From Candidatus Latescibacterota bacterium (GTDB lineage Bacteria > Latescibacterota > UBA2968 > GCA-2709665), in assembly GCA_965219455.1 (NCBI GenBank), contig OZ244744.1, positions 4,928,001 to 4,992,000 of the forward strand: a stretch of 64,000 bases of DNA. Direction: 5' to 3'. How positions within the stretch are numbered: the stretch's first letter is position 1; every line of letters starts with the position of its first letter. A program made the translations under genes and the position numbers. Shown here in pieces: positions 3,847 through 27,700 of the stretch. The notes under the pieces are model-generated. The model had not been told where the DNA came from, ran no database searches, and worked only from the letters and a program-made list of their open reading frames with translations.

Positions 3847-3891
3847 GGGCTCCAGATTCGCGGCACACGATCCGGTTCCGGAGGATCGCGA

Positions 3892-4293
3892 ATGAGAACG
3901 TTTGTGGGAATTTCGTTTGTACTGGCGCTGCTTTCGGTGGCGTGCGGAGAAGACAATCCGCTGAACTACGATACGCTGGCAGGCACCTATACGCTGAGAG
4001 AGATTCGAGTGACCAATGCATCGGGCCTCGTTACACTAGGTCCACCCGATGCAACCGGAACGCTTGTTCTGACCACCACGGGCGCCTTCACGCTGAGCGT
4101 CAGTGTACCTACGCTCGGGCTCAACGATACGTACTCGGCTGGAGTGTACGCTGTGGAAGGAACAAGCCTCGTGTTCGAAGACCAGGAATCATTGGGCGTT
4201 ACCGGCGCCGATGCATCGGTGAGCGGGAACGAGCTGACATTGACGTCTGCAATCGGCAACCAGGCCGTCACGATGATCTTCGGGAAGGTCTGA
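3892..4293 (+). CDS. Lipoprotein, lipocalin-like beta-rich fold
   Basis: Signal peptide with lipobox LSVA-C; LAGTYTL; beta-strand pattern. Confidence 0.65.
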   Translation: MRTFVGISFVLALLSVACGEDNPLNYDTLAGTYTLREIRVTNASGLVTLGPPDATGTLVLTTTGAFTLSVSVPTLGLNDTYSAGVYAVEGTSLVFEDQESLGVTGADASVSGNELTLTSAIGNQAVTMIFGKV

Positions 4294-4342
4294 CCGGTTT
4301 CGCCAACGGATTGAACCAGGGTCAGAGAAAGCAGGCGTTCCC

Positions 4343-4372
4343 GGCCCTCAACCCGAAGGCGGGCTGAGGGCC
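4343..4372 (+). terminator. GC-rich hairpin after the lipoprotein gene
   Basis: GGCCCTCAACCCG-AAGG-CGGGCTGAGGGCC; no clear U-tract. Confidence 0.35.
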
Positions 4373-4483
4373 GTCGCTAAAGGGCACCTCCAACGTGAGA
4401 ATTTTGTAAGACGCGACGGCTGATTATGCTGCCGGAGAATAAGCGGTTGCGACGGGATTCGATTCGCTGTCGAGGGAGGGAAA

Positions 4484-5795: not shown

Positions 5796-6210
5796 ATGAC
5801 AAGCAACGCCAACCTTAACTGGATCGCAAACTACATATGGGGAATCGCAGACGACGTGCTGCGCGATCTGTACGGGCAAGGTGCAGTTGATCGACGCCAC
5901 AGCCTGGCACCGGCCGCTACGCAAGAACCTGGGCAAGAAGAACTGCGAGCTCGGCGAAGAGGACATTCAGCGCATCTGCGACACCTTCCTCGCCTTTGAG
6001 GTGAGCGAGCAGAGCAAGATCTTCGACAATGACGCCTTTGGCTACTGGAAGGCGACTGTCGATCGGCCGCTGCGGCTCAATGGGATTGACCCCAATCGCG
6101 CCTACAAGGCCGCCGAGATCAAAAAGATGAAGGAGAGTTGCGGACGCAGCGAAACCGCGCCCGCCCGTCATCAGGAAGATCCACAGAAGAGGTACGGAGG
6201 CCGACCCCAT
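5796..6210 (+). pseudogene. hsdM: Type I RM methyltransferase remnant
   Basis: MTSNANLNWIANYIWGIADDVLRDLY joined to GKVQLIDAT...; about 1.24 kb missing versus 13988-16432, including NPPY; frameshifted and truncated. Confidence 0.92.
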
Positions 6211-6320
6211 GCTGGAAGCATTGGCTGCGCGGATACGCAAATCGACGCAGGACAGGCCAACAGATCGTCGCGACGGCTGAGCCGAAGGGAAACTAAAGCG
6301 CAAGGGCGAGCGATGCCCTG
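6202..6320 (+). repeat. About 120-bp repeat: end of a small antitoxin-like gene plus trailer; also at 7102-7221 and 16945-17063
   Basis: gacccc..gctggaagcattggctgcgcggatacgcaaatcgacgcaggacagg...gaagggaaactaaagcgcaagggcgagcgatgccctg occurs three times. Confidence 0.9.
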
Positions 6321-6339
6321 CATATCGCTGCGGCGACCG

Positions 6340-6490
6340 TGGCCGGGGTCGATGTTTTGGCAAGGCGGTATGCCAGCGCAATGACTACGAACACGTCATC
6401 CGGAATGAATCCGCGCTGGACCGGATTCGGCAATACATCGCGGATAACCCGGCCAGGTGGTCGAAAGACCCGGAGAATCCTGCCGCTAAG
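6340..6490 (+). pseudogene. REP-associated tyrosine transposase (RAYT) C-terminal fragment
   Basis: QRNDYEHVIRNESALDRIRQYIADNPARWSKDPENP, nearly the same as 17460-17580. Confidence 0.85.
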
Positions 6491-7936: not shown

Positions 7937-7990
7937 AATACAAGGAAGTCATGGATAATTCAGCCCCATTGGTTGCCGACGGCGCGCGGG

Positions 7991-8171
7991 CCTGCCCTCT
8001 GCCGCTGACGCCTGGTACCAGTCGGACAGCGTGAGAATCGGCTACGAGATCAGCTTCACCCGGTACTTCTACAAGCCCCAGCCGATGCGGACTCTGAAGG
8101 AGGTCCGAGCTGTCATTCTTGCGCTGGAGAAAGAAAAAGAAGGGTTGTTGGCGGAGATTATCGTGCTATGA
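7991..8171 (+). pseudogene. hsdM 3' tail A
   Basis: DAWYQSDSVRIGYEISFTRYFYKPQPMRTLKEVRAVILALEKEKEGLLAEII*, homologous to 15775-15943. Confidence 0.9.
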
Positions 8172-10902: not shown

Positions 10903-11475
10903 ATGACCACCACAGACACCACCGAACGCGGGCTTGAACGCCTGATTTGCACCGCCCTGACGGGCCAGGACGGTCCCGCGCGGCGCGGTTTCCTGACCCG
11001 GCTCCAGGGCGAAGTCAGCAAACGCGGAACCATCGACGTACTGCGCAACGGGATCAAGCACCAGGCAATGCAAAAGATCATGCTGGCGGACGAGGATGCC
11101 GAGATCGATCCGGTACCCACGGCCGGCGGGGAGCATCACCCTGAACCGGAATTGGATCGGCTCTCCAACATACTCCGAGTCTTCAACGAATACTTTGGTG
11201 ACATTGAATGGGAAGATGAAGACCGCGTGCGGCAACTCATCATAGAGACGATTCCGGCCCGCGTCGCCGCCGATACAGCGTTCCGGAACGCACGGGAGAA
11301 CTCCGACCGGCAGAATGCCCGGATCGAGCACGACAAGGCGCTTGTGCGGGTGATGACCGGAGTGATGCGTGACGACACCGAACTGTTCAAACTGTACATG
11401 GATAACCCGGGCCTCAATCGCTGGATGGCCGATACCGTGTTCAGCCTTGCCTACGAGCCGACTGTCGCGCCTTAA
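10903..11475 (+). pseudogene. hsdR: Mini-HsdR (190 aa) made by two in-frame deletions
   Basis: N-terminal 22 aa, then GPARRGFL..GIKH, then the C-terminal domain QAMQ...LAYEP; nuclease and helicase motifs absent versus 24690-27700. Confidence 0.9.
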
Positions 11476-12113: not shown

Positions 12114-12568
12114 ATGCCCTTGACTGATGTTGAATTTGCTTCCATCCTGAACGACAATACTAAGCGAATCGCAGATGACGTTATCTGGACCGAGGACGAG
12201 GATCACTCCCCGGCGTTGGAATTCCGCGTAGACGTCACGTCGGAGAGTGGTTGGCCGTTGTTTGTAAAGGGACGTTTTAACTCGGCTGCTCGAACGTTAA
12301 ATTATGCGCTCATTTTGACGACGGAAGGCCGCATATATGGTCTCGACCTTGGAAAGGATCATCACAATCCACAGTGTGATCAGGTCAGGAAAAATACAAG
12401 CATACGTGGTCAGAACGTTACAGCGATAAAGAAGCATATGTGCCCGACGACATAGATGCACCTCTTTTGGATCCGGTGTCAGTTTGGACAGAGTTCTGCG
12501 TTGAAGCAGGCATTCAACATGATGGCATAATGAATGAGCCGCCCGCTATTCAGGTGGAGCTTTGTAAT
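12114..12568 (+). pseudogene. DUF6978-like protein with apparent 1-nt deletions
   Basis: RIYGLDLGKDHHNP..., then shifts frame near the A5 at about 12390 to KHTWSERYSDKEAYVPDDI; a TAATG junction with the next gene needs one more base. Confidence 0.6.
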
Positions 12569-13346
12569 GGACAGCGAAGAATTGTGTCGGAACTTGGAGA
12601 CGGAAATCGGAACCTTGTTCACGTGTTCTGAACAAGGTGAGTATCAGCGAATTCGCACTCCTTATCTATATCCGGATGGCGACAATATCGATCTCTTCTG
12701 TAAGGCGGCCGGTGACGTCATGACGGTAACCGACCTTGCGGAGACCACAGGTTGGCTGCGCATGCAGTCGCCATCTCTACGTCGTTCGCCGAAGCAGAGA
12801 CGGCTTATAGAAGATGCCTGTGTGACGCATGGTATCGAGTTTTACCGCGGGATGCTTCAGGCGCGATGTCGTCAGAGTGATCAGTTGGCGAATGTCGTTA
12901 CACGAGTTGCTCAGGCTGCACTTCGGGTATCCGACCTGTGGTTCACTTTCCGAACTCAGTCGGTCCAATCCATCACGGATGAAGTAGCGGATTTTCTCTC
13001 GGAGCGTGAGTTGGGCTTCGAGCGTTCCGAAAGGCTTGCCGGCCGATCAGGACGCGGTTGGACGGTCGATTTCCACGTCAGGGCGAAGTTTAGAAGCTCG
13101 TTGGTACAGGTGCTTAGCACTGGGAATCGCGCGGCAGGGCACAGAGTCTCCGAGCACGTGTTGGCCGCTTGGCATGATCTGAATCACCTTGCGGTGGGAC
13201 CGGAAGCGTTGACTTTCGTCTCCCTGTTCGATGATACCGCGGATGTCTGGGCAGATGAGGATTTTCGGCTCGTCGAGCCGTTATCCCTGGTTTCTCGCTG
13301 GTCGAGGCCGGATGAGTTTGCCACTGTTGTCAGTGGAGCGGCGTGA
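12567..13346 (+). CDS. DUF1828/DUF1829-like protein
   Basis: RIRTPYLYPDGDNIDL...TDLAET; C-terminal GRSGRGWTVDF resembles a restriction-endonuclease-like fold. Confidence 0.75.
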   Translation: MDSEELCRNLETEIGTLFTCSEQGEYQRIRTPYLYPDGDNIDLFCKAAGDVMTVTDLAETTGWLRMQSPSLRRSPKQRRLIEDACVTHGIEFYRGMLQARCRQSDQLANVVTRVAQAALRVSDLWFTFRTQSVQSITDEVADFLSERELGFERSERLAGRSGRGWTVDFHVRAKFRSSLVQVLSTGNRAAGHRVSEHVLAAWHDLNHLAVGPEALTFVSLFDDTADVWADEDFRLVEPLSLVSRWSRPDEFATVVSGAA

Positions 13347-13948: not shown

Positions 13949-13976
13949 GTAGGGGCGACCGGCCGGTCGCCCCTAC
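13949..13976. repeat. REP palindrome upstream of hsdM
   Basis: Perfect GTAGGGGCGACCGGCCGGTCGCCCCTAC. Confidence 0.9.
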
Positions 13977-13987
13977 AAGGAATCCCG

Positions 13988-16432
13988 ATGACAAGCAACG
14001 CCAACCTGAATTGGATCGCGAATTATATTTGGGGAATCGCAGACGACGTGCTGCGCGATCTGTACGTTCGCGGCAAGTACCGCGACGTGATCCTGCCGAT
14101 GACCGTTCTGCGACGGCTCGACGCGGTGCTGGAGGATAGCAAGCAGGCGGTCCTGGACATGCAGGCTTCACTCGACAAAATCGGCTTGGTCGACCAACAC
14201 GAACCCCTGCGTCAGGCGGCGGGACAGGACTTTTACAATACCTCCAGGTTCACGCTGCGCGACCTGCGCGCGCGCGCCAATCGCCAGCAGCTCGAGGCCG
14301 ACTTCCGGGCCTGGCTGGACGGGTTCTCGCCCAACGTCCAGGACATCCTCGAAAACTTCGAGTTCCGCAACCAGGTTTCGCGGTTGTCCAGGGCCGATGC
14401 CCTGGGCACGCTGATCGAAAAACTCACCTCGCCCGACATCAACCTGAGCCCAGCCCCGGTGCGCAACGCCGACGGCTCGGTCAGGCACCCCGGCCTCGAC
14501 AACCACGGTATGGGGACGATCTTCGAAGAGTTGATCCGGCGCTTCAACGAGGAGAACAACGAGGAGGCGGGCGAGCATTGGACCCCGCGCGACGCCGTGA
14601 CCCTGATGGCGAAGCTGGTCTTCCTGCCCGTCGCCGACCGGATCAAGTCCGGCACCTACCTGATCTACGACGGAGCCTGCGGCACCGGCGGCATGTTGAC
14701 CGTGGCCGAGGACGTGCTTCAGTTGCTCGCCGCCGAGCGCGGCAAGCAGGTCTCCACCCACCTCTATGGCCAGGAGATCAATGCGGAGACGTACGCCATC
14801 TGCAAGGCCGACCTGTTGCTGAAGGGTGAAGGGGACGCCGCCGACAACATTGTGGGGGGCCCGGAGCACTCCACCCTGTCCAACGACGCCTTCCCGTCCC
14901 GCGAGTTCGACTTCATGCTCTCCAATCCGCCCTACGGCAAGAGCTGGAAGACCGATCTGGAGCGCATGGGCGGCAAGAAGGAGATGCGGGATCCGCGCTT
15001 TGTGATCGAGCACGCGGGCGATCCCGAATATTCCCTGGTCACCCGCTCCAGCGACGGCCAGATGCTCTTTCTCGCCAACAAGCTCTCCAAGATGAAGGAG
15101 GGCGGGAGCCGCATCGCCGAGGTACACAACGGCAGTTCCTTGTTCACCGGAGACGCCGGCCAGGGCGAGAGCAACATCCGGCGTTGGATCATCGAAAACG
15201 ACTGGCTGGAGGCGATCGTCGCCCTGCCGCTCAACATGTTCTACAACACCGGGATCGCCACTTACGTCTGGGTGCTAACCAACCGCAAGCCAGAGCATCG
15301 CAAGGGCAAGGTGCAGTTGATCGACGCCACCGGGTGGTACCGCCCGCTGCGCAAGAATCTGGGCAAGAAAAATTGCGAGCTCGGCGAAGAGGACAATCAG
15401 CGTATCTGCGACACCTTCCTCGCCTTTGAGGAAAGCGAGCAGAGCAAGATCTTCGACAACGCCGCCTTCGGCTACTGGAAGGTGACGGTCGAGCGTCCGT
15501 TGCGGCTCGAAGGGATTGACCCCAATCGCGCCTACAAGGCCGCCGAAATTAAGAAACTGAAAGAGAGTAGTGAGCGCAACGAAACCGCGCCGCCCGTCAT
15601 CAAGAAGATCCACAAGAAAGGCACCGAGGCTGACCCACTGCGCGGCCGGTTCGAGGTCACTATCAACGGCAGGCCTGCGGTGGTCGAATACGAACCGGAC
15701 ACCGATCTGCGCGACACAGAACAGATTCCGCTCCAGGAAGAGGGCGCCATCGAAGCCTTCCTCCGGCGAGAGGTCCTGCCCTATGCCGCTGACGCGTGGT
15801 ACCAACCGGACAGCGTGAAGATCGGCTACGAGATCAGCTTCACGCGATATTTCTACAAACCTCAGCCTATGCGGACCTTGGAGGAGATCCGGGCGGACAT
15901 CCTGGCGCTGGAACAAGAAACCGTCGGATTGCTCGACGATCTGCCGATGGTGCGCGAACCGTCGGTTGTGTACGGCAAGCCGCGCATCTACGTGGATACC
16001 TCGGTGATCGGCGGGTGTCTGGACGAGGAGTTTCGCGAACCCTCATGCCGGTTGATCGAGAAGTGCGCTCGTGGAGAGATGACGCTGGTGGTGTCGTCGG
16101 TCACGTTGGAGGAACTGGAAGCCGCGCCGCGAGCCGTCCGCAATGTACTGCGGTCCATCCCTCTCGAGAACCTGGAGAGAGTCGAAGTGACGGAAGAAGT
16201 GCAGAATCTGGCGGATCGGTATATTGAGAGCAGCGCGCTCGCGGAGCCGATGCGCACAGATGCCGAGCACATCGCCGCCGCCACCGTGGCCGGCGTGGAC
16301 GTGCTAGCGAGCTGGAACTTCCGGCACATGGTGAACCTGTGGCGAATCAGGATGTACAACGCGGTGAACCGGCGCATGGGATACCCCCCGGTGGACATGC
16401 GCAGCCCAAAGGAGCTTGTAAATGAAGAATAG
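13988..16432 (+). CDS. hsdM: Type I RM methyltransferase HsdM fused to a C-terminal PIN domain
   Basis: GEHWTPR, YDGACGTGG, SNPPYG (m6A), end motif IRADILALEQE; continues in frame into IYVDTSVIGG...DAEHIAAA...SWNFRHMVN. Confidence 0.92.
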   Translation: MTSNANLNWIANYIWGIADDVLRDLYVRGKYRDVILPMTVLRRLDAVLEDSKQAVLDMQASLDKIGLVDQHEPLRQAAGQDFYNTSRFTLRDLRARANRQQLEADFRAWLDGFSPNVQDILENFEFRNQVSRLSRADALGTLIEKLTSPDINLSPAPVRNADGSVRHPGLDNHGMGTIFEELIRRFNEENNEEAGEHWTPRDAVTLMAKLVFLPVADRIKSGTYLIYDGACGTGGMLTVAEDVLQLLAAERGKQVSTHLYGQEINAETYAICKADLLLKGEGDAADNIVGGPEHSTLSNDAFPSREFDFMLSNPPYGKSWKTDLERMGGKKEMRDPRFVIEHAGDPEYSLVTRSSDGQMLFLANKLSKMKEGGSRIAEVHNGSSLFTGDAGQGESNIRRWIIENDWLEAIVALPLNMFYNTGIATYVWVLTNRKPEHRKGKVQLIDATGWYRPLRKNLGKKNCELGEEDNQRICDTFLAFEESEQSKIFDNAAFGYWKVTVERPLRLEGIDPNRAYKAAEIKKLKESSERNETAPPVIKKIHKKGTEADPLRGRFEVTINGRPAVVEYEPDTDLRDTEQIPLQEEGAIEAFLRREVLPYAADAWYQPDSVKIGYEISFTRYFYKPQPMRTLEEIRADILALEQETVGLLDDLPMVREPSVVYGKPRIYVDTSVIGGCLDEEFREPSCRLIEKCARGEMTLVVSSVTLEELEAAPRAVRNVLRSIPLENLERVEVTEEVQNLADRYIESSALAEPMRTDAEHIAAATVAGVDVLASWNFRHMVNLWRIRMYNAVNRRMGYPPVDMRSPKELVNEE

Positions 16433-16658
16433 TGAGAGCAGCGCAAAGGCTTTCGACTGCGTAAAGTGGACGCGCGAGATCCGGGACCGGATCAACGCGA
16501 AACTGGAGGGGATGTCCCCGGAAGAGCGGCGTCGGCGGCTCAATGCGGCTGTCCGCAAGGATCCCTACTTTGCTCGCATTCCGAAGTCCCGGGTTGTGCG
16601 ACCTTGGCAGGACGATGGGGCAAGCGACGGCGGCCGATCCGGCGCCGAGGGCGATTGA
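16422..16658 (+). CDS. Putative antitoxin of the HsdM-fused PIN
   Basis: Overlaps the fusion stop; KAFDCVKWTREIRDRI...MSPEE, a small-protein type seen after SWNF-type PINs. Confidence 0.65.
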   Translation: MKNSESSAKAFDCVKWTREIRDRINAKLEGMSPEERRRRLNAAVRKDPYFARIPKSRVVRPWQDDGASDGGRSGAEGD

Positions 16659-16693
16659 TGATGAAGATCGGGAAGGGAACGAAGGCTCTCGGC

Positions 16694-16816
16694 GCAAGCT
16701 GGAACTTCAGGCACATGGTGAACTGGCGGCGCATTAGAGTGTACAACGAGGTCAATCGTCAAAATGGATACCCCGCTATTGACATTCGCACGCCGGAGGA
16801 AATCGTCCATGATTGA
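16694..16816 (+). pseudogene. Second PIN, C-terminal remnant only
   Basis: ASWNFRHMVNWRRIRVYNEVNRQNGYPAIDIRTPEE, paralogous to 16306-16432. Confidence 0.85.
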
Positions 16817-17024
16817 AGACCCCCGCCACAAAAAGAATTTCGACTGTGTAGAATTCATGCGCCTGGCCCGCGCCCGCATTACCGCCGAAACCGCCGACAT
16901 GACTGCTGACGAACGGATAGCGTGGTTCAATTCCAGGCGGTATTCGGACCCCGTGCTGGAAGCATTGGCCGCGCGGATACGCAAATCGACGCAGGACAGG
17001 CCAACAGATCGTCGCGACGGCTGA
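16809..17024 (+). CDS. Second putative antitoxin (paralog of 16422)
   Basis: KNFDCVEFMRLARARITAETADMTADERIAWF. Confidence 0.65.
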   Translation: MIEDPRHKKNFDCVEFMRLARARITAETADMTADERIAWFNSRRYSDPVLEALAARIRKSTQDRPTDRRDG

Positions 17025-17074
17025 CCCGAAGGGAAACTAAAGCGCAAGGGCGAGCGATGCCCTGCAATATGGAC

Positions 17075-17640
17075 GGAAGACCCGGAGAATCCTGCCGTCA
17101 GGGACGTCCAGGATCCATACGCTGTAGGGGCGACCGGCCGGTCGCCCGCAGTGGGCCACGACCCGGGTCAGTCTGCGCGATGATGGCCGTATTCAAATCT
17201 GCCGCAACCAAACGGATCAACGCCATGCGCGGCACGCTACGAACACGTTTTCCGGAATGAATCCGTGCTGGATCGGATTCGACAACACATCGCGGATAAC
17301 CCGGCGGGATGGTTTGAAGACCCGGAGAATCCTTCCGTCAGGGACGTCCAGGATCCACTCGGCGCACGGGCGACCGGCCGGTCGCCCCTACATTAGTGAA
17401 TGATGATGACGTCAAACCCTGACCAAACACATTAACGCCATGCGCCGCACGCCCGGTGCGCCGGTATGGCAGCGCAATTACTACGAACACGTTATCCGGA
17501 ACGAATCCGCGCTGGATCGGATTCGGCAATACATCGCACATAACCCGGCCGGATGGTCTGAAGACCCGGAGAATCCTGCCATCAGGGATGTCCAGGAACA
17601 ATTCGGCATAGGGGCGACCGGCCGGTCGCCCGCATTGGTA
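17075..17640 (+). mobile_element. Tandem RAYT C-terminal fragments interleaved with REPs (17124-17147, 17368-17391, 17608-17631)
   Basis: GPRPGSV.AMMAVFKSAATKRINAMR; TPGAPVWQRNYYEHVIRNESALDRIRQYIAHNP; the repeat gaagacccggagaatcct..cc.tcaggga.gtccagga occurs three times. Confidence 0.88.
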
Positions 17641-17670
17641 TATAATTCGATTACCGTAGATCTCGAATTT

Positions 17671-17769
17671 TACCCTGGGCCGCTGCACACGCTGGGAGAG
17701 ATTCGGGATGATATTATAGCCCTTGAGAAAGAGCCGGAGGGGTTGTTGGACGAAATTCTGAGGGCATAA
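17671..17769 (+). pseudogene. hsdM 3' tail B
   Basis: PLHTLGEIRDDIIALEKEPEGLLDEILRA*; TAATG overlap with the RAYT start. Confidence 0.8.
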
Positions 17770-18101
17770 TGAACGCCTCCTGCGATCCGGAGAAACATCA
17801 CCGTCGGTCAATCCGATTGCGCAACTACGACTATTCACGAGCCGGCGCATACTTTATCACCGTCTGCACAAAGGGCCAGGAATTACTGTTTGGCGAAGTG
17901 AATAATGGTGAGGTGGAGTTGAACGAATTTGGCCGGATGGCCGCAGAGGAATGGCTAAATTCTGCACGGATCCGCATCGAGATCGAACTGGACGCATGGA
18001 TTGTCATGCCGAACCACGTTCATGGCGTCGTCATAATTGTCAACAAACGCTGTAGGGGCGACCGGCCGGTCGCCCCTGGTTTACGGGCCGGGCCAGGCTA
18101 G
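17769..18101 (+). mobile_element. RAYT N-terminal half, truncated just after an internal REP (18052-18077)
   Basis: HHRRSIRLRNYDYSRAGAYFITVCT...WIVMPNHVHG (HUH motif). Confidence 0.9.
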
Positions 18102-18156
18102 GCCAATGGATAGTCGCGACGCGAGAACGAGGTGACGGTACAGATCTGTAAAAATG

Positions 18157-18237
18157 ATTCACGCCGACATCCACGCGCTGGAACAAGAAGCCGAGGGGAT
18201 GTTGGCGCAGACTATTGGCGACTGCGAAAGGACGTGA
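18157..18237 (+). pseudogene. hsdM 3' tail C
   Basis: IHADIHALEQEAEGMLAQTIG, like IRADILALEQETVGLL. Confidence 0.7.
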
Positions 18238-18327: not shown

Positions 18328-19155
18328 ATGTCTTTTTCAAAATTACTTAAGAAAAAAGTCCGAGAACGCGCACTCGATCACTGTATCTATTGCCGAAAAA
18401 TATCCGGCAGTTTGCATATACATCATATCATTCAAGAAGGAGACGGCGGGCCAGATACAGAGGATAACGCTGCACCACTTTGCCCTAGCTGTCACGGTGA
18501 TTTTGGGGGTAACCCGGAGAAGCGTTCTCGGATTCGAGAAATGCGAGATCGCTGGTACGATATCTGCGAGAATTGTGTAATTGGATCAAGAAGATATCCT
18601 ATGTCAGGTTCTCTTGAACTAAATCGATATTCATTTGCCAGTGACGAGCTTGTTCATCCTCTGATTGTTCGTGAATTGTTAGGGTGGATTTCCGATTCAT
18701 CAGAGACGGTCGTTGGAGTGGATCTTGAATCGGCTAACAGCAGCAATCGGTTCCACGGAGACTTTGAGATTGATGATCGCGATGGGAGAAAGTGGGTAAC
18801 GTGGTCAGGTTCTGAGAGTCTCGGAAGTGAGTTCTTCACGTACGCTCATATCGTCACTTCTCCGACGGGAGTTGAAATGGTAGAGTGTTACGTTCGTGGT
18901 GGAGGTAGTGGAGTGTTTGGAAGCGTTGGACTCTTTCTTCTGGATCCAGATCGAGCTTTAGACGAATCTTGCTCAGGAAGATTGTCCACGCGGGATCGCC
19001 AAGTCCTTAAGATTCTCGGATCAATTGTTTTAGGCGATAGATACGAAGGTAAATTAACGTATGACGATAAGCTACTTACCATTGGCCGTGATGAAGGCAG
19101 AATCAAATCTCGTGGACGCATTTCAAAGTCTTGCCGCGAGTTTTTCGTTTTATAA
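18328..19155 (+). CDS. HNH endonuclease with an unknown C-terminal domain
   Basis: CIYC...HIHHII...GG.D..DNAAPLCPSCH; lower GC. Confidence 0.8.
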   Translation: MSFSKLLKKKVRERALDHCIYCRKISGSLHIHHIIQEGDGGPDTEDNAAPLCPSCHGDFGGNPEKRSRIREMRDRWYDICENCVIGSRRYPMSGSLELNRYSFASDELVHPLIVRELLGWISDSSETVVGVDLESANSSNRFHGDFEIDDRDGRKWVTWSGSESLGSEFFTYAHIVTSPTGVEMVECYVRGGGSGVFGSVGLFLLDPDRALDESCSGRLSTRDRQVLKILGSIVLGDRYEGKLTYDDKLLTIGRDEGRIKSRGRISKSCREFFVL

Positions 19156-19373
19156 CGATTTTGCATTGTCTCTACAATCCACATATCCTTCAAGCGGACG
19201 GTACGGAACTACAGAGATGGATCAAACCGGTCGGGGGGAAGTTGACAACCGACACAGCAGAAGCGAGCAATTTCTGGTACGCGAATAACCTTCGACGTAC
19301 TCGAAGACGGAATGTCGTGGATTACATTGCATGCTCGCGTTGGCTCGGACGGAAATGGATGGCAAGGAAGCCG

Positions 19374-20210
19374 ATGAACTGTCCAAAGGGTAGTGAGATT
19401 TCGATCGGGGAATGGCTCGATCAAATCGGGGCTACGAAAAAGTATGTCGGTTGCGATGGAGACGGCCCACCGGACTGGGAAATTCAGTACAAGGGTTCCA
19501 CGATTGGTGTTGAGGTGACTCTCCTTCATAACACGGAAGGGTGGAGGAGGACCAATAGGGGAAGAAGAAGAGAGAAGGCCTTTGAAGGGGAACTCAGGCG
19601 CTTGATCGAAGAGATGTCCAAGGAGGGAGGGCAGGAGTGGCATACATTATGCGAGTACGACCCCAGAGTGCCTCGGCCGCCGAGTGATGATGATTGGAAG
19701 GCGCGCGTCCGTGACGCGCTTCGCGATTCACCCTCAGGTGATGGTATTCAATTGTTAACAGAGGGCGATATACAGAGGCGGGGATTGGGGCGCGGAATAG
19801 TGCTGGAGTTTATCCCGGTGTGTGACGGGGAAGGCTTCACAAGAGTCAGCGTCGACGAAGGCTCCTTGGTTGGCACAACGCTTTCCGAACGGCTTATTGC
19901 CAATGTGGACGAAAAAGCAGATAAGGTCAGAAAGGGCAAGAGATCGAAGGAATACAATCAGTGGTGGCTCGTCTTTGACGATGAGATCCTTATGGTTCCC
20001 TTTTCGAATCTTGTCCCCGAAGAAAGATCTGAGATCGTTGCGAGGGTGCATGAATGTGACGGAAGACACCAGTGGAGCAAAATCGTCATAGTTAGCCGAA
20101 TGCAAACCGGTCCGCCACCGGCGAAGCAGAATAAGTGGTTCTACGCTCCGTGGGAGAATCCCAAGCATCCTTCACTTCCGCCGAGCCCGTATTCGGCTAC
20201 GACTACCTGA
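19374..20210 (+). CDS. Hypothetical protein, PD-(D/E)xK-like nuclease candidate
   Basis: PPDWEI...IGVEVT and EK..K...Y..WWLV.D; AAGGAAG upstream of ATG 19374. Confidence 0.55.
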   Translation: MNCPKGSEISIGEWLDQIGATKKYVGCDGDGPPDWEIQYKGSTIGVEVTLLHNTEGWRRTNRGRRREKAFEGELRRLIEEMSKEGGQEWHTLCEYDPRVPRPPSDDDWKARVRDALRDSPSGDGIQLLTEGDIQRRGLGRGIVLEFIPVCDGEGFTRVSVDEGSLVGTTLSERLIANVDEKADKVRKGKRSKEYNQWWLVFDDEILMVPFSNLVPEERSEIVARVHECDGRHQWSKIVIVSRMQTGPPPAKQNKWFYAPWENPKHPSLPPSPYSATTT

Positions 20211-20460: not shown

Positions 20461-21789
20461 ATGAATTCATATATCGCTGGTGAATTAAGGCCTTATCAGG
20501 GAATGAAGGACTCAGGAGTAAAGTGGCTGGGCAAAATCCCTTCGCATTGGAAAGTATTACCTAACCGTACACTCTTTGAGGAGGTTAAGGAACGCGATCA
20601 CCCTGAAGAACAAATGTTATCTGTAACGATCAAGCGTGGTGTCATACGGCAGAATGAGCTTTTGGATGAAAGCTCACAGAAGGACAGTTCGAACTTAGAT
20701 AAGTCGGCATACAAACAGGTCAAGCCTGGAGACATCGCATATAACAAAATGAGAGCATGGCAGGGTGCCATGGGAGTTTCCGAGTACCAAGGCATCGTCA
20801 GTCCTGCCTATGTTGTTGAGCGGCCTCGTAAGGGAGTTAACTCCAACTTTTCCCATTATTTGCTTCGCACACCTGGATTCGCGAAAGAGGCAGAACGGTG
20901 GTCATACGGGATTAATTCGGACATGTGGAGCCTACGGCCTGAACACTTCAAGATGATCTATACTTGCCTTCCTCCCCTCCAGGAACAAGCCGCCATCGTC
21001 CGTTTCCTCGACCACGCCGACCGGCGCATCCAGCGCTACATCCGCGCCAAGCAGAAGCTGATTGCGCTGCTGGAGGAGCAACGAAAGGCTGCTACACAAG
21101 AAGTGATTCAATCACGAAGTGTTACCTCAAATAAAATCGAGGTCGTTGCAGACTTGGTCGAAAGGCCGATTCACCGTGTGGCCACCGACACTTACACCCC
21201 GATTGGTCTTTACAATCGAGGACGTGGCATCTTTAAAAAGGAACCTCGAAACGGCGGTGAATTGGGAGATTCCGATTTCTTTTGGGTCGAAGAAGGTGAC
21301 TTGGTTCTCAGCGGGCAGTTCGCTTGGGAAGGTGCAATCGCTCTGGCAGGTGGCACTGAGTTTGGGTGCGTTGCAAGTCACCGCTATCCGATCCTACAGG
21401 GTAGGCACAATGTCTTGGATTCAGGATTCTTGCTGGCGTTTTTTCAGACGGATTGGGGCCAGCTTCTTCTTGATCACCACTCAAGAGGTGCGGCGGGAAG
21501 GAACAGGCCTCTCAATGCTAGAACACTTTTGAAAGAGAAGATACCGCTGCCACCTCTTCGCAATCAGATGGATATAGTTAAAATGCTGCGACGCGAAAAA
21601 ATGGTGCGCCAACAGGTCGAAGACTCCAAGAGACTGCTGAATGAATACCAGACCCGCCTAATTTCCGATGTCGTCACCGGCAAGCTCGATGTGCGCGAGG
21701 CGGCGGCTGAACTGCCGGAGGAAGACGTTCACCGCGACACCGAGAAATCGGCGGACGAGTACGCAATCGAAACGGACGTTACCGTATGA
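20461..21789 (+). CDS. hsdS: Type I RM specificity subunit with two TRDs
   Basis: KDSGVKWLGKIPSHW, LPPLQEQAAIVRFLD, RLISDVVTGKLDVRE. Confidence 0.93.
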   Translation: MNSYIAGELRPYQGMKDSGVKWLGKIPSHWKVLPNRTLFEEVKERDHPEEQMLSVTIKRGVIRQNELLDESSQKDSSNLDKSAYKQVKPGDIAYNKMRAWQGAMGVSEYQGIVSPAYVVERPRKGVNSNFSHYLLRTPGFAKEAERWSYGINSDMWSLRPEHFKMIYTCLPPLQEQAAIVRFLDHADRRIQRYIRAKQKLIALLEEQRKAATQEVIQSRSVTSNKIEVVADLVERPIHRVATDTYTPIGLYNRGRGIFKKEPRNGGELGDSDFFWVEEGDLVLSGQFAWEGAIALAGGTEFGCVASHRYPILQGRHNVLDSGFLLAFFQTDWGQLLLDHHSRGAAGRNRPLNARTLLKEKIPLPPLRNQMDIVKMLRREKMVRQQVEDSKRLLNEYQTRLISDVVTGKLDVREAAAELPEEDVHRDTEKSADEYAIETDVTV

Positions 21790-22906: not shown

Positions 22907-22939
22907 TCACAGACAGAAACTGTGAGGCTGTGATTGTGA
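22907..22939 (+). promoter_or_regulatory. Putative operator of the RHH antitoxin
   Basis: TCACAG-N7-CTGTGA plus further (C/T)TGTGA repeats at the start codon; similar at 9135-9158. Confidence 0.5.
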
Positions 22940-23298
22940 GAAATATCACCGTATCGGTCGACGAGCAGACACACCGGCTCGCGCGTATCCGTGCGGCGGA
23001 GTTGGATACATCGGTATCGGCGCTGGTGCGGGACTTCCTGAGACATCTGACAGCGGAGCGGGATGCGGGGGGCGAAGCCAGTGCCGAGTCTATTGAATCC
23101 ATCTATCAGCGTCGGTGCAGGCTGCTGCGGGAAGTGCTCGCGGACTTCGATAGACAGGGTATTGGGTTGCGAATGTCCGACAACCTGCCCAGAGAGGCGT
23201 TGTACGACCGCGTCGCGGCAAGGGCCGAGGCTGTCGCCGAGCGCGAGCGGCAGCGCAGCATCTCTGAAGCACTCAGAGTCTCGCCATGCGATTCGTAG
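22936..23298 (+). CDS. RHH-type antitoxin, copy 2
   Basis: Near-identical to 9161-9523. Confidence 0.85.
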   Translation: MRNITVSVDEQTHRLARIRAAELDTSVSALVRDFLRHLTAERDAGGEASAESIESIYQRRCRLLREVLADFDRQGIGLRMSDNLPREALYDRVAARAEAVAERERQRSISEALRVSPCDS

Positions 23299-23711
23299 AT
23301 ACCAATGTCCTGCTGTACGCTGTCAGCGAGGTCCCGGAGGAGGCCGACAAGCGGGCGCGCGCGCTGGAAGTCCTGACAGAACCCGACCTCGCCGCGTCCG
23401 TTCAGGTGCTGCAGGAGTTCTATCACCAAACCACCCGGCCGACACGGATCCGCAGTCTTTCTGGCAATAGAGCTTTGCAATTCCTGGAGCCGATTCTGCT
23501 GTTCCGGATTCAGACCATGACGATTGACGTTTTTCTCGAGGCCATCGCCATCAGCCAGCGCTTTCGGCTGTCCTATTGGGACGCCGCAATTCTCGCCGCG
23601 GCCCACGCCCTGGGCTGCGATGCCGTGTATTCCGAAGATTTGAGTACAGACCAGGACTACGACGGCCTCCGGGTCATAAACCCGTTCACGGACGAGCAGG
23701 CTTCACGGTGA
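23286..23711 (+). CDS. PIN-domain toxin, copy 2
   Basis: FVDTNVLLYA...YWDAAILAAA...YSEDL. Confidence 0.92.
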   Translation: MRFVDTNVLLYAVSEVPEEADKRARALEVLTEPDLAASVQVLQEFYHQTTRPTRIRSLSGNRALQFLEPILLFRIQTMTIDVFLEAIAISQRFRLSYWDAAILAAAHALGCDAVYSEDLSTDQDYDGLRVINPFTDEQASR

Positions 23712-23800
23712 ACACCGACACCACTAAACGCCCCAAACAGAACGAACGTGACACGGGGAATCGTCACGAAATTCCTCATTTACACGAGGTTATGAGAAAT

Positions 23801-24226
23801 ATGAGCCACTCGACTCCACGCTGGAGGTACAGATTCTCCAACTACAAGCGTGCCTTTACGTTGCTGCGGGAAGCGATAGAGACGATGAGTGAGTCCGGAC
23901 TGAGCCAACTTGAAAAGGAAGGAACCATCCGGAGGTTCGAATACACGATGGAACTTGCGTGGAACGTCATGAAGGACTATTTGGAGCACGAGGGCGTCGT
24001 ATTTGAACAGACCACTCCGAGGAACGTCATCAGAAAGGCCTTCGAGACCAACCTGACCGAACACGGGAGGGTATGGATGGACGCACTCGATGCACGAAAC
24101 AAGATGTCCCATACCTACAATTTCGAGCAATTTGAAGAGGTAATAGAGAATATCCGCAGCCGATATCTTGCCGCAATGGAAGACCTTTACCTGGTTCTTT
24201 TGGAGAAGGAGGCGGACATTGACTGA
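23801..24226 (+). CDS. HEPN / nucleotidyltransferase substrate-binding protein, copy 2
   Basis: RFEYTMELAW, RNKMSHTY. Confidence 0.9.
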   Translation: MSHSTPRWRYRFSNYKRAFTLLREAIETMSESGLSQLEKEGTIRRFEYTMELAWNVMKDYLEHEGVVFEQTTPRNVIRKAFETNLTEHGRVWMDALDARNKMSHTYNFEQFEEVIENIRSRYLAAMEDLYLVLLEKEADID

Positions 24227-24560
24227 CCACGGACTTGTCGATGAGGAGCTCGAGACGATTCGGGCAGTTTTGGCCAACTTCGCCGATGAGATCAGACAGG
24301 TTGACCTGTTCGGATCGAGGGCCACGGGAAACTACCGCGGAAATTCCGACGTTGATCTTGTCGTTCACGGAGACGTCAGGGATGCCACGATCGACAGACT
24401 GTGGACTCTGTTCAACGAGAGCAATCTGCCCTTATCGGTTGACGTTGCCAGCTATGAAAGCATGACGTATCGCCCCCTGAAGGCGCATGTCGACGCTGTC
24501 CGGCAATGCCTGTTTTCGGCTCAGGACATCCGGCAGGGCAAGAAAACGCGGGCTACATAG
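24219..24560 (+). CDS. Minimal nucleotidyltransferase (MNT), copy 2
   Basis: TTG start after AAGGAGG; LFGSRATG...SDVDL. Confidence 0.88.
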   Translation: MTDHGLVDEELETIRAVLANFADEIRQVDLFGSRATGNYRGNSDVDLVVHGDVRDATIDRLWTLFNESNLPLSVDVASYESMTYRPLKAHVDAVRQCLFSAQDIRQGKKTRAT

Positions 24561-24689: not shown

Positions 24690-27600
24690 ATGACCGTCTC
24701 CGACACCACTGAACGCGGGCTTGAACGCCTGATTTGCACCGCCTTGACAGGCCAGGGCTGCGAGGCCCCCGCTGCAGGCACCGTGGGAGAACCGCCCGTG
24801 GGTTATGGCGGTGTCGGCTGGAGTTGCGGCAATCCCCACGACTACGACCGTGAGTACTGCGTCGATCTGGTGCAACTGTCGGCATTCCTGCGCGACACCC
24901 AGCCCGAAGCCGCCGAGGCGTTGACGCTTTCCGAAGAAGGTCCGGTGCGACGTGCGTTTCTGACCCGGCTTCAGGGCGAAATCAGCAAGCGCGGCACCAT
25001 CGACGTGCTTCGCAACGGGATCAAGCACCAATCGTTCCACCTGGATCTGTTCTACGGCACCCCGTCGGCCGGCAACCCGCAGGCACAGGAGTTGTTCGAG
25101 CAGAACCGTTTTACCGTCACGCGGCAGCTTCGCTACAGCCGGGACGAGGCGCAGCGGGCGCTGGACATAGGTCTGTTCATCAATGGTCTGCCGGTGTTCA
25201 CGTTTGAGCTGAAAAACAGCCTCACCAAACAGACGGTGGACGATGCGGTCTGGCAGTACCGAAAGGACCGGAACCCTCGCGAAAAGTTGTTTGAATTCGG
25301 GCGATGCATGGTGCACTTCGCATTGGATGAGCGCGAGGTGCGTTTTTTTTTTGTACACACCTGAAGGGTAAGGCGTCCTGGTTTCTTCCCTTTAACCGCG
25401 GCTGGAACGACGGCGCGGGCAACCCGCCCAACCCGCACGGTCTTTCGGTCTCCTATCTCTGGCGTGAAGTACTCACGCGGGAGAGTCTCACCAACATCCT
25501 CGAGAATTACGCCCAGGTGGTGGCGTCGAAGGACGAAAAGAGCGGCAGGAAGCGGAGTACCCAAATCTGGCCGCGCTTCCATCAGCTCGACGTGGTGCGC
25601 CGTCTGCTGGCCGACGCGGGCGCCCGCGGTGCAGGTCAGCGCTATCTGATCCAGCATTCCGCAGGCAGCGGCAAGAGCAACTCCATCGCCTGGCTCGCCC
25701 ATCAACTGATCCGGCTGGAGAAGGACGATGCTCCCGTTTTCGACTCAATTATCGTCGTAACGGACAGGCTCATCCTGGACCGTCAGATCCGCGACACAAT
25801 CAAACAATACGCCCAGGTGGCGGCAACGGTAGGGCATGCCGACGGCTCGGGCGATCTGCGCCGGTTCATCGAAAGCGGCAAAAAGATTATCATTTCCACC
25901 GTCCAGAAGTTCCCTTTCATTCTGGACGAGATCGGCAACGAGCAGCGTGGGAGGCGCTTCGCCATCATCATCGACGAAGCCCACTCAAGCCAGGGGGGCC
26001 GCACCAGCGCAGCCATGGCGCAGGCGCTGTCGGAAGCCGGCGAAGAAGACGATCTGGATACCTTTGAGGACCGGATCAACCGCCTGATGGAGTCACGAAA
26101 GCTCCTTCCCAACGCCAGTTACTTCGCGTTTACCGCCACGCCCAAAAACAAGACGCTCGAGATCTTTGGCGCCGCGGACCCGCAGCCCGACGGTACGGTG
26201 AGGCATCTCGCCTTCCATAGCTACACGATGAAGCAGGCGGTCCAGGAAGGATTTATCCTCGACGTACTCGCACACTACACGCCGGTGGCGAGTTACTACA
26301 AGCTTGCGAAGACGGTTGAGGAGGATCCCGAATTCGACGTTCGGAAGGCGCAGAAGAAGCTGCGTCGTTTCGTGGAGGGCAGCGATCACGCGATTCGGCT
26401 CAAGGCCGAGATCATGGTCGACCATTTTCATGACCAGGTGCTGAAGCAGGGAAAGATCGGCGGCGCGGCGCGGGCGATGGTTGTCACAAATGGCATCGAG
26501 CGCGCGATCCAGTACTTCCATGCCATCCGCGACTATCTCAGGGAGCGCAAGAGCTCTTACGAGGCTCTGGTCGCCTTCTCCGGCGAGCACGACTACGGTG
26601 GCGCCAGGGTAAGCGAGGCGTCGCTGAACGGTCTGCCTTCCTCCCGGATCGCCAAGCGATTCCAGGAGGATCCATACCGGTTCCTGGTGTGCGCTGACAA
26701 GTTTCAAACCGGCTACGATGAGCCCCTGCTGCACACGATGTACGTGGACAAGACGCTGTCAGGAATAAGGGCCGTGCAGACTCTGTCTCGCCTCAACCGG
26801 GCGCATCCCAGGAAACACGACGTGTTCGTGCTCGACTTTTTCAACGACACCGACACCATTCGCGAAGCGTTCGCGGACTTTTACCGGGCGACGATCCTGG
26901 CCGACGAGACCGACCCCAACAAGCTGCACGACCTGCAGGCGGACCTGGACGGCGCGCAGGTCTATTCCGAGGTGCAGATCGACGAGTTTGTCCGGCGCTA
27001 CCTGGACGGCGAGGAACGCGACCGTCTCGATCCGATCCTGGACGCGTGCGTAGCGGTCTATCGGCGGGAGCTGGACGAAGACGGCCAGGTCGCGTTCAAA
27101 GGTAAGGCCAAAGCCTTCGTGCGAACCTACGCCTTTCTTTCTTCCATCCTACCATACAACGACCCCGCATGGGAAAAGCGTTCGATTTTCCTCAACTTCC
27201 TGGTCCCGAAGTTGCCGGCTCCCGAGGAAGAGGATCTCTCCAAAGGTGTCCTCGATGCGATCGATCTCGACAGCTACCGGGTTGAGAAGCAGGCAATGCA
27301 ACGGATCCTGTTGGCGGACGAGGATGCCGAGATCGATCCGGTACCGGCAGCCGGCGGAGGGCATTACCCGGAGCCGGAATTGGATCGACTCTCCAACATA
27401 CTTCGGGTCTTCAACGAGCATTTTGGCGACATTCAATGGGAAGATGAGGACCGCGTGCAGCAACTCATCTTAGAGACCATACCGGCCCGCGTCGCCGCCG
27501 ACACCGCGTTCCGAAATGCACGCGAAAACTCCGACCGCCAGAATGCCCGGATCGAGCACGACAAGGCGCTGGTTCGGGTGATGACTGGAGTGATGAAAGA

Positions 27601-27700
27601 CGACACCGAACTGTTCAAACTGTACATGGATAACCCGGGCTTCAAGCGCTGGATGGCCGATACCGTTTTCGATCTCGCCTACGAACCGGCAGGTACGTAA
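24690..27700 (+). pseudogene. hsdR: Type I restriction subunit HsdR, full length but frameshifted at a T10 tract (25343-25352)
   Basis: DIGLFINGLPVFTFELK nuclease motif in ORF1; HSAGSGKS, IIDEAHS, FTATP in ORF2; correcting the tract gives EVRF..CTHLKGKASWFLPFNRG into ORF2 with no other stop seen. Confidence 0.93.

Follow-up and report, generated by a model that had tools for sequence, protein, structure and literature searches.

A 64,000-nt stretch of the genome of a Candidatus Latescibacterota bacterium (assembly GCA_965219455.1, contig OZ244744.1, positions 4,928,001 to 4,992,000 of the forward strand; hereafter the window) contains a type I restriction-modification (R-M) locus in which the methyltransferase gene hsdM runs in frame into a region encoding a predicted VapC-like PIN domain and is followed by a small gene for a presumed antitoxin. 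The fusion gene, its parts and its partner gene are as follows, with positions counted from the first letter of the window and protein lengths and residue numbers in amino acids (aa).

13988..16432, + strand: hsdM-PIN fusion gene (open reading frame (ORF) list, Pfam, database homologues)
13988..15919, + strand: HsdM part, aa 1-644, with HsdM_N, N6_Mtase (NPPYGKSW), a beta-rich region and a last helix at 631-649 (Pfam, PADLOC, secondary structure)
15920..15982, + strand: linker, aa 645-665, with model confidence (predicted local distance difference test, pLDDT) below 50 at 645-662 and with variable sequence and length among homologues
15983..16417, + strand: predicted VapC-like PIN domain, aa 666-810 (conserved residues, AlphaFold2, Foldseek)
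16025..16282, + strand: hypervariable PIN core, aa ~680-765 (nucleotide identity to nine syntenic loci)
16422..16658, + strand: cognate small protein of type A, 78 aa, presumed antitoxin (ORF, ribosome-binding site (RBS), homologues, co-variation, complex prediction)

The HsdM-PIN fusion

The ORF listing gives a single open frame, 13988..16432 on the + strand, for a protein of 814 aa in which HsdM is followed by a linker of ~20 aa and a VapC-like PIN region. An earlier note on this DNA, made from the letters alone, had described an HsdM end without a stop codon that runs in frame into a PIN domain, and the translation bears this out: there is no stop between ...IRADILALEQETVGLLDDL, the end of HsdM, and PMVREPSVVYGKPRIYVDTSVIGG..., the usual HsdM terminus ...ETVGLLDDL continues directly into the latter, and the junction region reads ...GLLDDLPMVREPSVVYGK... 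The same note held that the other hsdM tails of the window end in a stop, which is the case for two clear tails, at 7983-8159 (...GLLAEIIVL, then stop) and 17668-17757 (...GLLDEILRA, then stop), while a third tail is a weak match (18142-18204, E 0.001). In the fusion protein, Pfam places HsdM_N (PF12161) at aa 10-146 (E 6e-20) and N6_Mtase (PF02384) at aa 172-484 (E 1.5e-51), and PADLOC identifies the N-terminal 650 residues as MTase_I (PDLC03029, E 1.5e-237; profile length 661 positions). The catalytic NPPY motif is found within SNPPYGKSW; with HsdM_N, an N6_Mtase domain that contains NPPY, and hsdS and hsdR in the same locus, the carrier has the features of a type I HsdM. In the full-length AlphaFold2 model, the blocks of the PIN domain have pLDDT values of 76-92 and residues 645-662 fall below 50; the methyltransferase core is poor (pLDDT below 50 at 260-427), and the model was not used to place PIN relative to HsdM. 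The PIN region is predicted to be a separate domain on a flexible linker.

On the whole fusion protein, the Pfam models PIN and PIN_3 match aa 666-778 weakly (E 0.004), and on a 161-aa piece (aa 654-814) the match reaches E 2.9e-4, with 21.9 bits for PF01850 against a cut-off of 23.6 and 22.1 bits for PF13470 against 27; NCBIfam and PADLOC gave no match to the PIN part. Because these Pfam scores are sub-threshold, the assignment rests on the fold. The earlier note had proposed a structure prediction as a check, and the AlphaFold2 model of the 161-aa piece, built with an alignment of 99 free-standing homologues from a representative library, has a pLDDT of 95.2 and alternating strands and helices. 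A Foldseek search of the PDB with this model returned 33 matches at E<=1e-3, most of which, among those listed, are PIN/VapC chains; the top matches are PIN/VapC proteins with probability 1.00, template modelling (TM) scores of 0.5-0.69 and 10-20% identity, and examples include a Pyrococcus PIN protein, Salmonella and Shigella VapC, Rickettsia VapC2 and M. tuberculosis VapC15/20. Sequence searches of the PDB with profiles of the PIN domain and of the small protein gave nothing meaningful. Residues D670, E709 and D758, which we take to be the catalytic positions from the motifs of VapC, are invariant in all 80 aligned fusions, as the earlier note's remark on intact acidic residues led one to expect, and N777 and H780 of the SWNFRH motif are likewise invariant in 80/80. 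Within a PIN type, the ratio of nonsynonymous to synonymous substitution rates (dN/dS) is 0.14-0.36 for type B (28 pairs) and 0.17-0.30 for type C (6 pairs). By its modelled fold, the tail is probably a VapC-like PIN ribonuclease domain, and its conserved sequence suggests that the nuclease is likely to be active.

A search for this architecture elsewhere, as had been suggested, showed that the fusion is widespread. In a database search confined to proteins of 447-1425 aa and scored on residues 640-814, 185 of 1309 candidates matched at E<=1e-3; all 120 of the 120 proteins listed from these 185 align through the junction to at least residue 808, 109 of them being at least 800 aa long and 11 cut at the N-terminus. 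Among 61 genomes of relatives, 10 have the PIN inside one open frame, 825-835 aa long. A sample of the phylum gave 14 carriers among 168 genomes, with matches to at least residue 810 in 13 and a match in two pieces in the fourteenth. In contigs from one genome per species, 259 stretches encode a relative, of which 80 were kept and 77 have a full PIN; in 58 of these 77 loci the PIN is fused in frame to at least 150 aa of HsdM (mostly 650-790 aa). By record titles, the fused loci come from five phyla: Latescibacterota, Gemmatimonadota, Acidobacteriota, Gammaproteobacteria and Rhodothermales. Free-standing PINs of the same family, ~155 aa long, are represented in the representative library by 3611 entries at E<=1e-3 and 1223 at E<=1e-10. 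The library matches are mostly such free-standing proteins of ~150 aa and were not used for the frequency of fusions, because clusters at 50% identity hide fusions. No PIN homologue was found at E<=1e-5 among 50,697 phage records.

The genome is a one-contig assembly, and at another place in the locus at least one homopolymer differs suspiciously (a T10 tract against T5 in hsdR); an artefact, or a very recent stop loss in this one genome alone, might be suspected on that account. Against this suspicion stand the open junction in all 120 listed proteins and in many independent assemblies, which makes a sequence error unlikely, and the metagenome contigs of three DNA studies, which over 15400-17100 contain no insertion or deletion, so that the stop or indel near 15945 by which the earlier note would have abandoned the fusion was not seen. 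The sole substitution near the junction in those contigs is 15962 T>C, in one contig. No contig spans the junction with 31 nt on either side, the best one covering 15817-15966 with 0 differences; an RNA-library contig covers 15953-16336 with 0 differences at a depth of 2.4 and, as a possible DNA carry-over, was not counted as expression. Assembly or sequencing error was ruled out by these observations, and recent stop-codon loss, which the earlier note had offered as an alternative, is rejected because the fusion is widespread, the junction DNA is 80-94% identical among ten loci and PIN is under purifying selection; the spread over five phyla, the presence of at least seven linkers and the PIN dN/dS of 0.14-0.36 all contradict a recent capture. 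An artefact confined to this genome is, on this evidence, scarcely conceivable, and the in-frame HsdM-PIN fusion is a genuine feature.

Production of PIN as a separate protein, from an internal ATG at 15947 or GTG at 15950, would turn the fusion into two overlapping genes without a functional tether. The ATG is located exactly at the domain border in the window, and free-standing homologues begin ~10 residues before the first strand, as this proposal would predict. On the other hand, Met654 is present at the junction in 33/80 fusions, the remainder having Leu, Ala or Pro, and at least seven different linker sequences occur among fused loci, all with an open frame. No ribosome-binding motif upstream of ATG 15947 is comparable to those of hsdM, whose own ATG is preceded by AAGGA, and of the 78-aa gene (AAGGAG), in agreement with the earlier observation that no clear RBS is found there. 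Separate production is thus highly improbable, and the distribution of the junction Met together with the lack of an RBS suggests that the fusion is obligate; some internal initiation may occur in this particular genome. Two related loci differ at this point: L035 (G136) has a quite different linker, ...GEIVGTQPHTRAKKLRVYADTS, on an HsdM 91% identical to that of the window, and the L119 protein ends in ...GEIVGAQPPNPEGDLR followed by a stop. These hint at separate events of fusion or loss.

The small partner gene and probable cassette exchange

The small gene (16422..16658) overlaps the fusion stop by 11 nt and has AAGGAG 8 nt upstream of its ATG. Its position is shared with free-standing relatives of the PIN: an overlapping small gene of 57-70 aa is found behind PIN in 8 of 8 free-standing loci examined, where the small protein has the motif K.FD.V..MR.IR....MT.EE, and a profile search detected a homologue starting within -60 to +120 nt of the PIN end in 73 of the 77 loci (one of the four loci with no match is cut by the locus end). 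On a Leptospira plasmid, a free-standing homologue annotated as a VapC-family toxin is accompanied by an overlapping 63-aa hypothetical gene and is located beside a replication gene. Judged from such gene neighbourhoods, PIN and the small gene form a widespread free-standing two-gene module in which the toxin gene comes first. Of the characters of type II toxin-antitoxin systems, an adjacent co-oriented partner gene accompanying the toxin gene is present; the partner is downstream and has no detectable DNA-binding domain, unlike the usual antitoxin, which is mostly encoded upstream and represses its own operon through such a domain. No Pfam, NCBIfam, PADLOC or PDB family matches the small protein, and an Atlas search with it returned unnamed clusters only (0.89-0.90).

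The earlier note had termed the small gene a putative antitoxin, and its proposal gains from a predicted binding at the active site and from an identity that tracks that of PIN. For the predicted complex between PIN (aa 654-814) and the 78-aa protein, the median score of three runs was 0.84, and the best of three controls scored 0.00; the runs share at least 93% of contacts, with a partner pLDDT of at least 75. The mark set for this score was reached by 58/80 solved complexes and 2/110 mismatched pairs, counts that hold only roughly here, since own alignments were used. The predicted interface comprises D670-G676, 707-713 (including E709), 754-758 (including D758) and W776-N777; it involves 50 PIN residues, among which 15 are invariant and 17 fall below 50% consensus, compared with 13 and 16 of the other 95. 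These models suggest that the small protein plugs the active site of PIN and also contacts its variable surface. Across 49 fused loci (1176 pairs), identities between PINs and between small proteins are correlated at r=0.92; with the last 200 aa of HsdM taken into account the partial correlation is 0.89, against 0.20 for the reverse partial, and none of 999 permutations in a Mantel test reached the observed value. A functional fusion with a cognate partner is a well-supported reading.

The organization of PIN and its partner into cassettes, which was not part of the earlier note, is the newer and more interesting aspect of the locus. Nine related genomes have the same gene order, PDC-M24B, hsdM-PIN, small genes, a gene for a REP-associated tyrosine transposase-like protein (RAYT; REP, repetitive extragenic palindromic), hsdS and hsdR, with PDC-M24B present in 2/9, RAYT in 4/9 and hsdR in 8/9. 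Compared with the window, their HsdM proteins are 90-94% identical and their PINs 50-60%. The same discordance is found among the 80 fusions, in which the closest HsdM bodies (91-96%) bear the most distant PINs (52-56%), HsdM bodies at 76-82% bear PINs at 68-75%, and the identities of HsdM and PIN are correlated at r 0.23 over 3160 pairs. In codon alignments, DNA identity remains at 80-94% across the junction and the first PIN strand in 8/9 loci, the exception being L022, in which it is 66-69% from ~aa 646; from a breakpoint at ~aa 680 it falls to 41-61% over aa 680-765, and it is 68-76% over the stretch encoding SWNFRHMVN in the nine loci. At 80% identity, 32 PIN types occur among the 80 fusions, and their distribution on the HsdM tree implies 40 changes, where at least 31 are required and shuffling gives 65 on average. 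Four types of small gene are found in the genus, and in 10/10 loci the small gene immediately after the main PIN belongs to the type that goes with that PIN. These sequence patterns suggest that PIN core and small gene behave as one exchangeable cassette. Metagenome contigs at 15400-17100 also include alternative continuations at 15912, into different HsdM ends, and joins that lead, for example, from 17062 back to 16266, which fits a co-existence of several cassette orders in the same communities.

Orphan cassettes and the surrounding type I locus

Behind the 78-aa gene, the window contains remains of a second cassette, the former end of hsdM and its old border.

16658..16816, + strand: orphan remnant, a 52-aa mini-frame whose last 40 aa are the C-terminal end of a type-B PIN (ASWNFRHMVN...EEIVHD) behind a short new N-terminal end; it begins at the stop of the 78-aa gene
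16809..17024, + strand: orphan type-B small gene, 71 aa when counted from the ATG that follows GGAGGA; its longest ORF starts at 16764 (homology)
17668..17769, + strand: displaced old 3' end of hsdM, ...EGLLDEILRA then stop, directly before the RAYT gene, as in the intact end of unfused orthologues
17769..18101, + strand: truncated RAYT-like ORF, marking what was formerly the downstream border of hsdM (synteny; NCBIfam NF047646, sub-threshold at E 6e-7)

The orphan type-B small gene is 72-80% identical to the small gene behind the main type-B PIN of relatives. At the DNA level, the orphan block shares 83-88% identity with the main PIN 3' end plus small gene of seven relatives, and it also matches full-length orphans in two other relatives. 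Conversely, type A, the main type of the window, occurs in relatives as an orphan only (C-terminal end of PIN plus small gene, 88-97% identity), and no DNA match to the type-A PIN core was found in 17 related loci. Relatives bear one to four orphans; a 60-aa piece of hsdM tail stands in front of some of them, and a second PIN of full length occurs once. In 17 of the 77 loci, from several phyla, two or more small genes are present, and such arrays extend beyond the HsdM-fused form, because in L097, a Vicinamibacteria record, a free-standing PIN is followed by four consecutive small-gene homologues (3001-4433). In unfused orthologues, which are 92-95% identical, hsdM terminates with ...LLDEILRA and a stop directly before RAYT. 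The simplest history is that a cassette consisting of an hsdM 3' end, PIN and a small gene recombined into hsdM and that later cassettes displaced earlier ones. For the small genes, dN/dS is 0.14-0.77, with three pairs above 1 (WINm-L032o, 1.57; L029m-L021o, 1.20; WINorph-L029m, 1.11); among the type-A small-gene copies, five of six of which are orphans, it is 0.22-0.56 save for WINm-L032o at 1.57.

Several further observations concern the borders of the array and the sequence upstream of it. In unfused orthologues, the slot behind hsdM holds small genes that, judged by eye, resemble HicA/HicB and DUF433-type pairs, and a DUF433 fragment in the window gave E 1.2e-4, below the Pfam cut-off. A perfect 28-nt palindrome, GTAGGGGCGACCGGCCGGTCGCCCCTAC, is located at 13950-13977, directly before the hsdM RBS, and copies of it, recognizable in translation as GATGRSP or RGDRPVA, recur at 17000-18100 around the truncated RAYT-like ORF; they resemble REP elements that, together with their transposase, flank the cassette array. 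Upstream of hsdM, a scrambled second copy of the locus is found at 5796-6362, 7983-8159 and 11002-11463, with remains that include an hsdM segment in which residues 1-29 adjoin 440-551, part of a type-B small gene, another hsdM tail, a PIN piece (residues 104-121, 89%) and hsdR-like pieces (581-725 at 84% and 94-130 at 57%). Directly upstream of hsdM, a DUF1828 protein (12534-13346) is the PADLOC candidate PDC-M24B (E 6e-104); this upstream position is kept in 2/9 syntenic loci (L022 and L023), and the copy in L036 lies downstream of hsdS. The interval that separates the cassette array from hsdS (18328-20210) contains a 275-aa HNH endonuclease gene overlapped by a 359-aa ORF with a match to no known family; the former recurs at 76% in L028 and the latter at 64% in L030 and L031.

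The remaining subunits of the type I system lie farther downstream.

20461..21789, + strand: hsdS of the same type I locus (ORF, PADLOC)
24690..27700, + strand: hsdR, split into two frames, 24690..25364 and 25331..27700, at a T10 tract (~25343-25352)

In L024, five T are present at this tract and hsdR is a single frame of 1084 aa; L024 and four further relatives have single hsdR frames of 1005-1084 aa. A strict pattern for the poly-T tract matched two oriented loci only. A true frameshift, a phase-variable tract or an error in the homopolymer could each account for the split at 25329-25360. Two further toxin-antitoxin-like pairs are found between hsdS and hsdR (22930-24560): a small ORF with a canonical PIN (23286..23711, PF01850, E 2e-12), and an NTase_sub_bind protein (~23792..24226) with a nucleotidyltransferase (24168..24560). 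With the HsdM-PIN pair included, the locus contains three toxin-antitoxin-like modules. A fusion of the first 52 residues of HsdR to an NTase_sub_bind (HEPN-type) protein was considered and found to be wrong, this segment being the out-of-frame 3' end of a canonical vapC gene.

A proposed tethered toxin-antitoxin cassette and its relation to known systems

Based on these data, a toxin-antitoxin cassette that is tethered to HsdM and whose PIN core and small gene are exchangeable was proposed, a reading that we hold to be slightly more probable than not. On this reading, the free-standing module of PIN and small gene has become attached to hsdM. In the fused form, the small gene would be translated in step with the fusion through the overlap with its stop, and the small protein would cover the PIN active site, as the complex prediction suggests, and keep the nuclease silent in the manner of an antitoxin. 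In type I structures, the C-terminal helices of HsdM pack on the HsdS coiled coil. Each M2S1 complex would carry two PINs near these helices. Bound to the methyltransferase, the module could act in addiction or abortive infection: when the supply of small protein fails, the two tethered PINs of an M2S complex may cut RNA and stop growth. Two conserved stretches are proposed as recombination anchors: one that begins in the 3' end of hsdM and extends as far as the first PIN strand (~aa 680), and the SWNFRHMVN-encoding stretch. Recombination at these anchors would install a new cassette and push the old one downstream, and the residue of such swaps would be truncated PIN ends, intact small genes and a former hsdM tail. 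Replacements that delete the resident small gene could be killed by the remaining toxin and be counter-selected, and old small genes could pile up because swaps that lose the resident partner are selected against. The benefit may lie in stabilization of the cassette and hsdM, in abortive infection or in a guard against anti-restriction proteins.

Several points weigh against this proposal. Toxicity, RNase activity, neutralization and trigger are all inferred. The PIN domain is below the Pfam gathering cut-offs, and the usual fourth acidic position is occupied by N777/H780. The small protein is in no named family, has no DNA-binding domain that was found and, unlike VapB, is encoded downstream; its complex score, obtained with own alignments, may partly owe to solved VapBC complexes, and the co-variation of PIN and small gene could come from linkage alone. 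Furthermore, PIN is dispensable, since same-genus orthologues have no PIN and it is frameshifted in L120. Orphan small genes with dN/dS below 1 are unneeded in a simple toxin-antitoxin model; their low values could date from the period as main copies and so would be no proof of present function. Finally, hsdR is frameshifted in this genome, and a role tied to restriction may therefore not apply in this strain. As regards dispensability, all that is left of the module in L032 is the C-terminal end of PIN and the small gene. In L119, hsdM is unfused and the gene behind it is a small-gene homologue, PIN being absent (2198-2401), and the frameshifted fused PIN of L120 is at 2099-2577; the L119 and L120 loci look like stages of toxin loss.

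A PrrC-like guard is one alternative to the tethered toxin-antitoxin cassette. In such a system, the PIN would be silent in M2S or R2M2S complexes, would be freed by Ocr, ArdA or an Stp-like peptide and would abort infection. The nuclease is covalently part of the complex, in a type I locus with hsdS and hsdR, and the many PIN and partner types could mirror an arms race with phage inhibitors; RNase toxins in type I loci are a described theme, as far as the available parts of the sources show, for PrrC (PMC12707154) and for vapC/hicA as a fail-safe (PMC9296519). However, the module has its own dedicated partner, and the pair also occurs free-standing far from R-M genes, so that the R-M complex need not control it; this genome has a frameshifted hsdR, and the lack of a PIN match at E<=1e-5 among the phage records is a further point against the guard, which we consider unlikely.

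A second alternative is that PIN is a working nuclease of the enzyme, which processes nucleic acid at the target of the methyltransferase or substitutes for or aids HsdR, with the small protein as a subunit for regulation or assembly. The conserved catalytic residues and the broken hsdR would suit such a role, and the portions available of an earlier survey (PMC5499597) contain some operons of PIN, HsdM and HsdS with no clear restriction enzyme. In contrast, VapC RNase toxins are the best-matching structures, the small protein would, by prediction, cover the active site instead of extending it, the two-gene module also occurs alone, including beside a plasmid rep gene, and the hsdR of relatives is intact (1005-1084 aa). 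Hypervariability, cognate partners and orphans are moreover typical of toxin-immunity pairs and not of housekeeping subunits, and a working nuclease of this kind is distinctly improbable.

Of the known systems, VapBC shares with the present module the PIN fold, the D/E/D site, an adjacent, translationally coupled partner predicted over the active site, and a free-standing relative annotated as a VapC-family toxin beside a plasmid rep gene. It differs in gene order, the toxin gene being first here, in that the partner has no detectable VapB, ribbon-helix-helix (RHH), AbrB or helix-turn-helix (HTH) domain, and in that PIN is below the Pfam cut-offs, has N/H at the fourth acidic position and is attached as a C-terminal domain to a 650-aa methyltransferase. 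PrrC and RloC, anticodon nucleases embedded in type I R-M loci, exist as separate polypeptides, not fused to HsdM, with an ABC-ATPase-like N-terminal domain, a different nuclease domain and no known antitoxin gene. In contrast, the nuclease described here is a PIN, covalently fused and with a partner protein of its own, and neither an ABC-ATPase-like nor an anticodon-nuclease domain was found in the fusion by Pfam, PADLOC or Foldseek. The likeness lies in an RNase associated with type I R-M, for which the physical association is central in the case of PrrC (EcoprrI) and RloC, according to the available part of an EcoSal review of embedded defence genes and PrrC (PMC12707154).

Toxin genes adjoining type I operons have been reported in several studies, cited here from their available portions. 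Matelska et al. (2017) described PIN genes in type I operons, sometimes without antitoxins (PMC5499597); Wilbanks et al. (2022) described vapC/hicA adjoining type I operons, proposed a PrrC-like fail-safe and noted that the usual antitoxins may be missing (PMC9296519); and Payne et al. (2024) treated embedded defence genes and PrrC (bioRxiv 10.1101/2024.01.29.577857). The cases in PMC9296519 and PMC5499597 resemble the present locus in having PIN-type toxins with hsdM, hsdS and hsdR. They are separate neighbouring genes, unlike the fusion, and the available text of the two papers mentions neither a fusion nor a downstream partner nor cassette polymorphism, of which the supplements might show some. 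A full-text literature search found no HsdM-PIN fusion in print, only reports of adjacency, with the reservation that supplements might hold examples. Toxin genes within type I loci are already known, with PrrC as the model; a nuclease that is covalently part of the methyltransferase and has its own partner did not come up in this search of the literature. In public annotation, the fusions are labelled only "N-6 DNA methylase" because PIN is under the Pfam thresholds, and a precomputed PIN match exists for only 6 of the 120 listed fusions; a family of at least five phyla is therefore invisible to domain-based defence surveys.

The layout of the locus is also reminiscent of exported toxins. CdiA-CT/CdiI, Rhs-CT/RhsI and MafB systems have a conserved N-terminal body, a variable C-terminal toxin, a cognate protective gene and orphan modules. 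The present locus likewise has truncated toxin ends with intact protective genes and short conserved upstream pieces located downstream. In contrast to those toxins, which are exported against neighbouring cells and have delivery domains, HsdM is cytoplasmic and gives no sign of export, and the variability begins here inside PIN, after the first strand. No secretion genes were found between hsdM and hsdR, and the carrier shows HsdM_N, N6_Mtase and PIN only. Because the carrier is a cytoplasmic HsdM with no secretion genes in this interval, the system was not filed as a member of the Cdi/Rhs type, the layout alone being alike. Pneumococcal tvr/ivr loci are said to be phase-variable type I loci with hsdS shufflons driven by a site-specific recombinase. 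Silent partial copies downstream of an expressed type I gene, with recombination that alters, here presumably, the expressed version, are a common trait; in the shufflons the specificity subunit varies, whereas here it is the toxin end of hsdM, and no dedicated recombinase was identified.

More tentatively, HsdM could be the fixed carrier of an intracellular polymorphic toxin-immunity system, in which dozens of PIN and partner specificities are swapped among co-resident bacteria of several phyla through homologous recombination at two anchors, post-segregational killing keeps the old partners in place, and the tether reports the state of the methyltransferase and causes arrest upon interference by phages or other elements; this extended proposal is, taken as a whole, rather doubtful. 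To our knowledge, cassette swapping with orphan partner genes has been described only for exported competition toxins. A Cdi-like layout on a cytoplasmic enzyme bears on how toxin-antitoxin specificities diversify, and its occurrence on HsdM raises the questions of whether post-segregational killing shapes gene order and whether restriction-modification and abortive infection are mechanically coupled.

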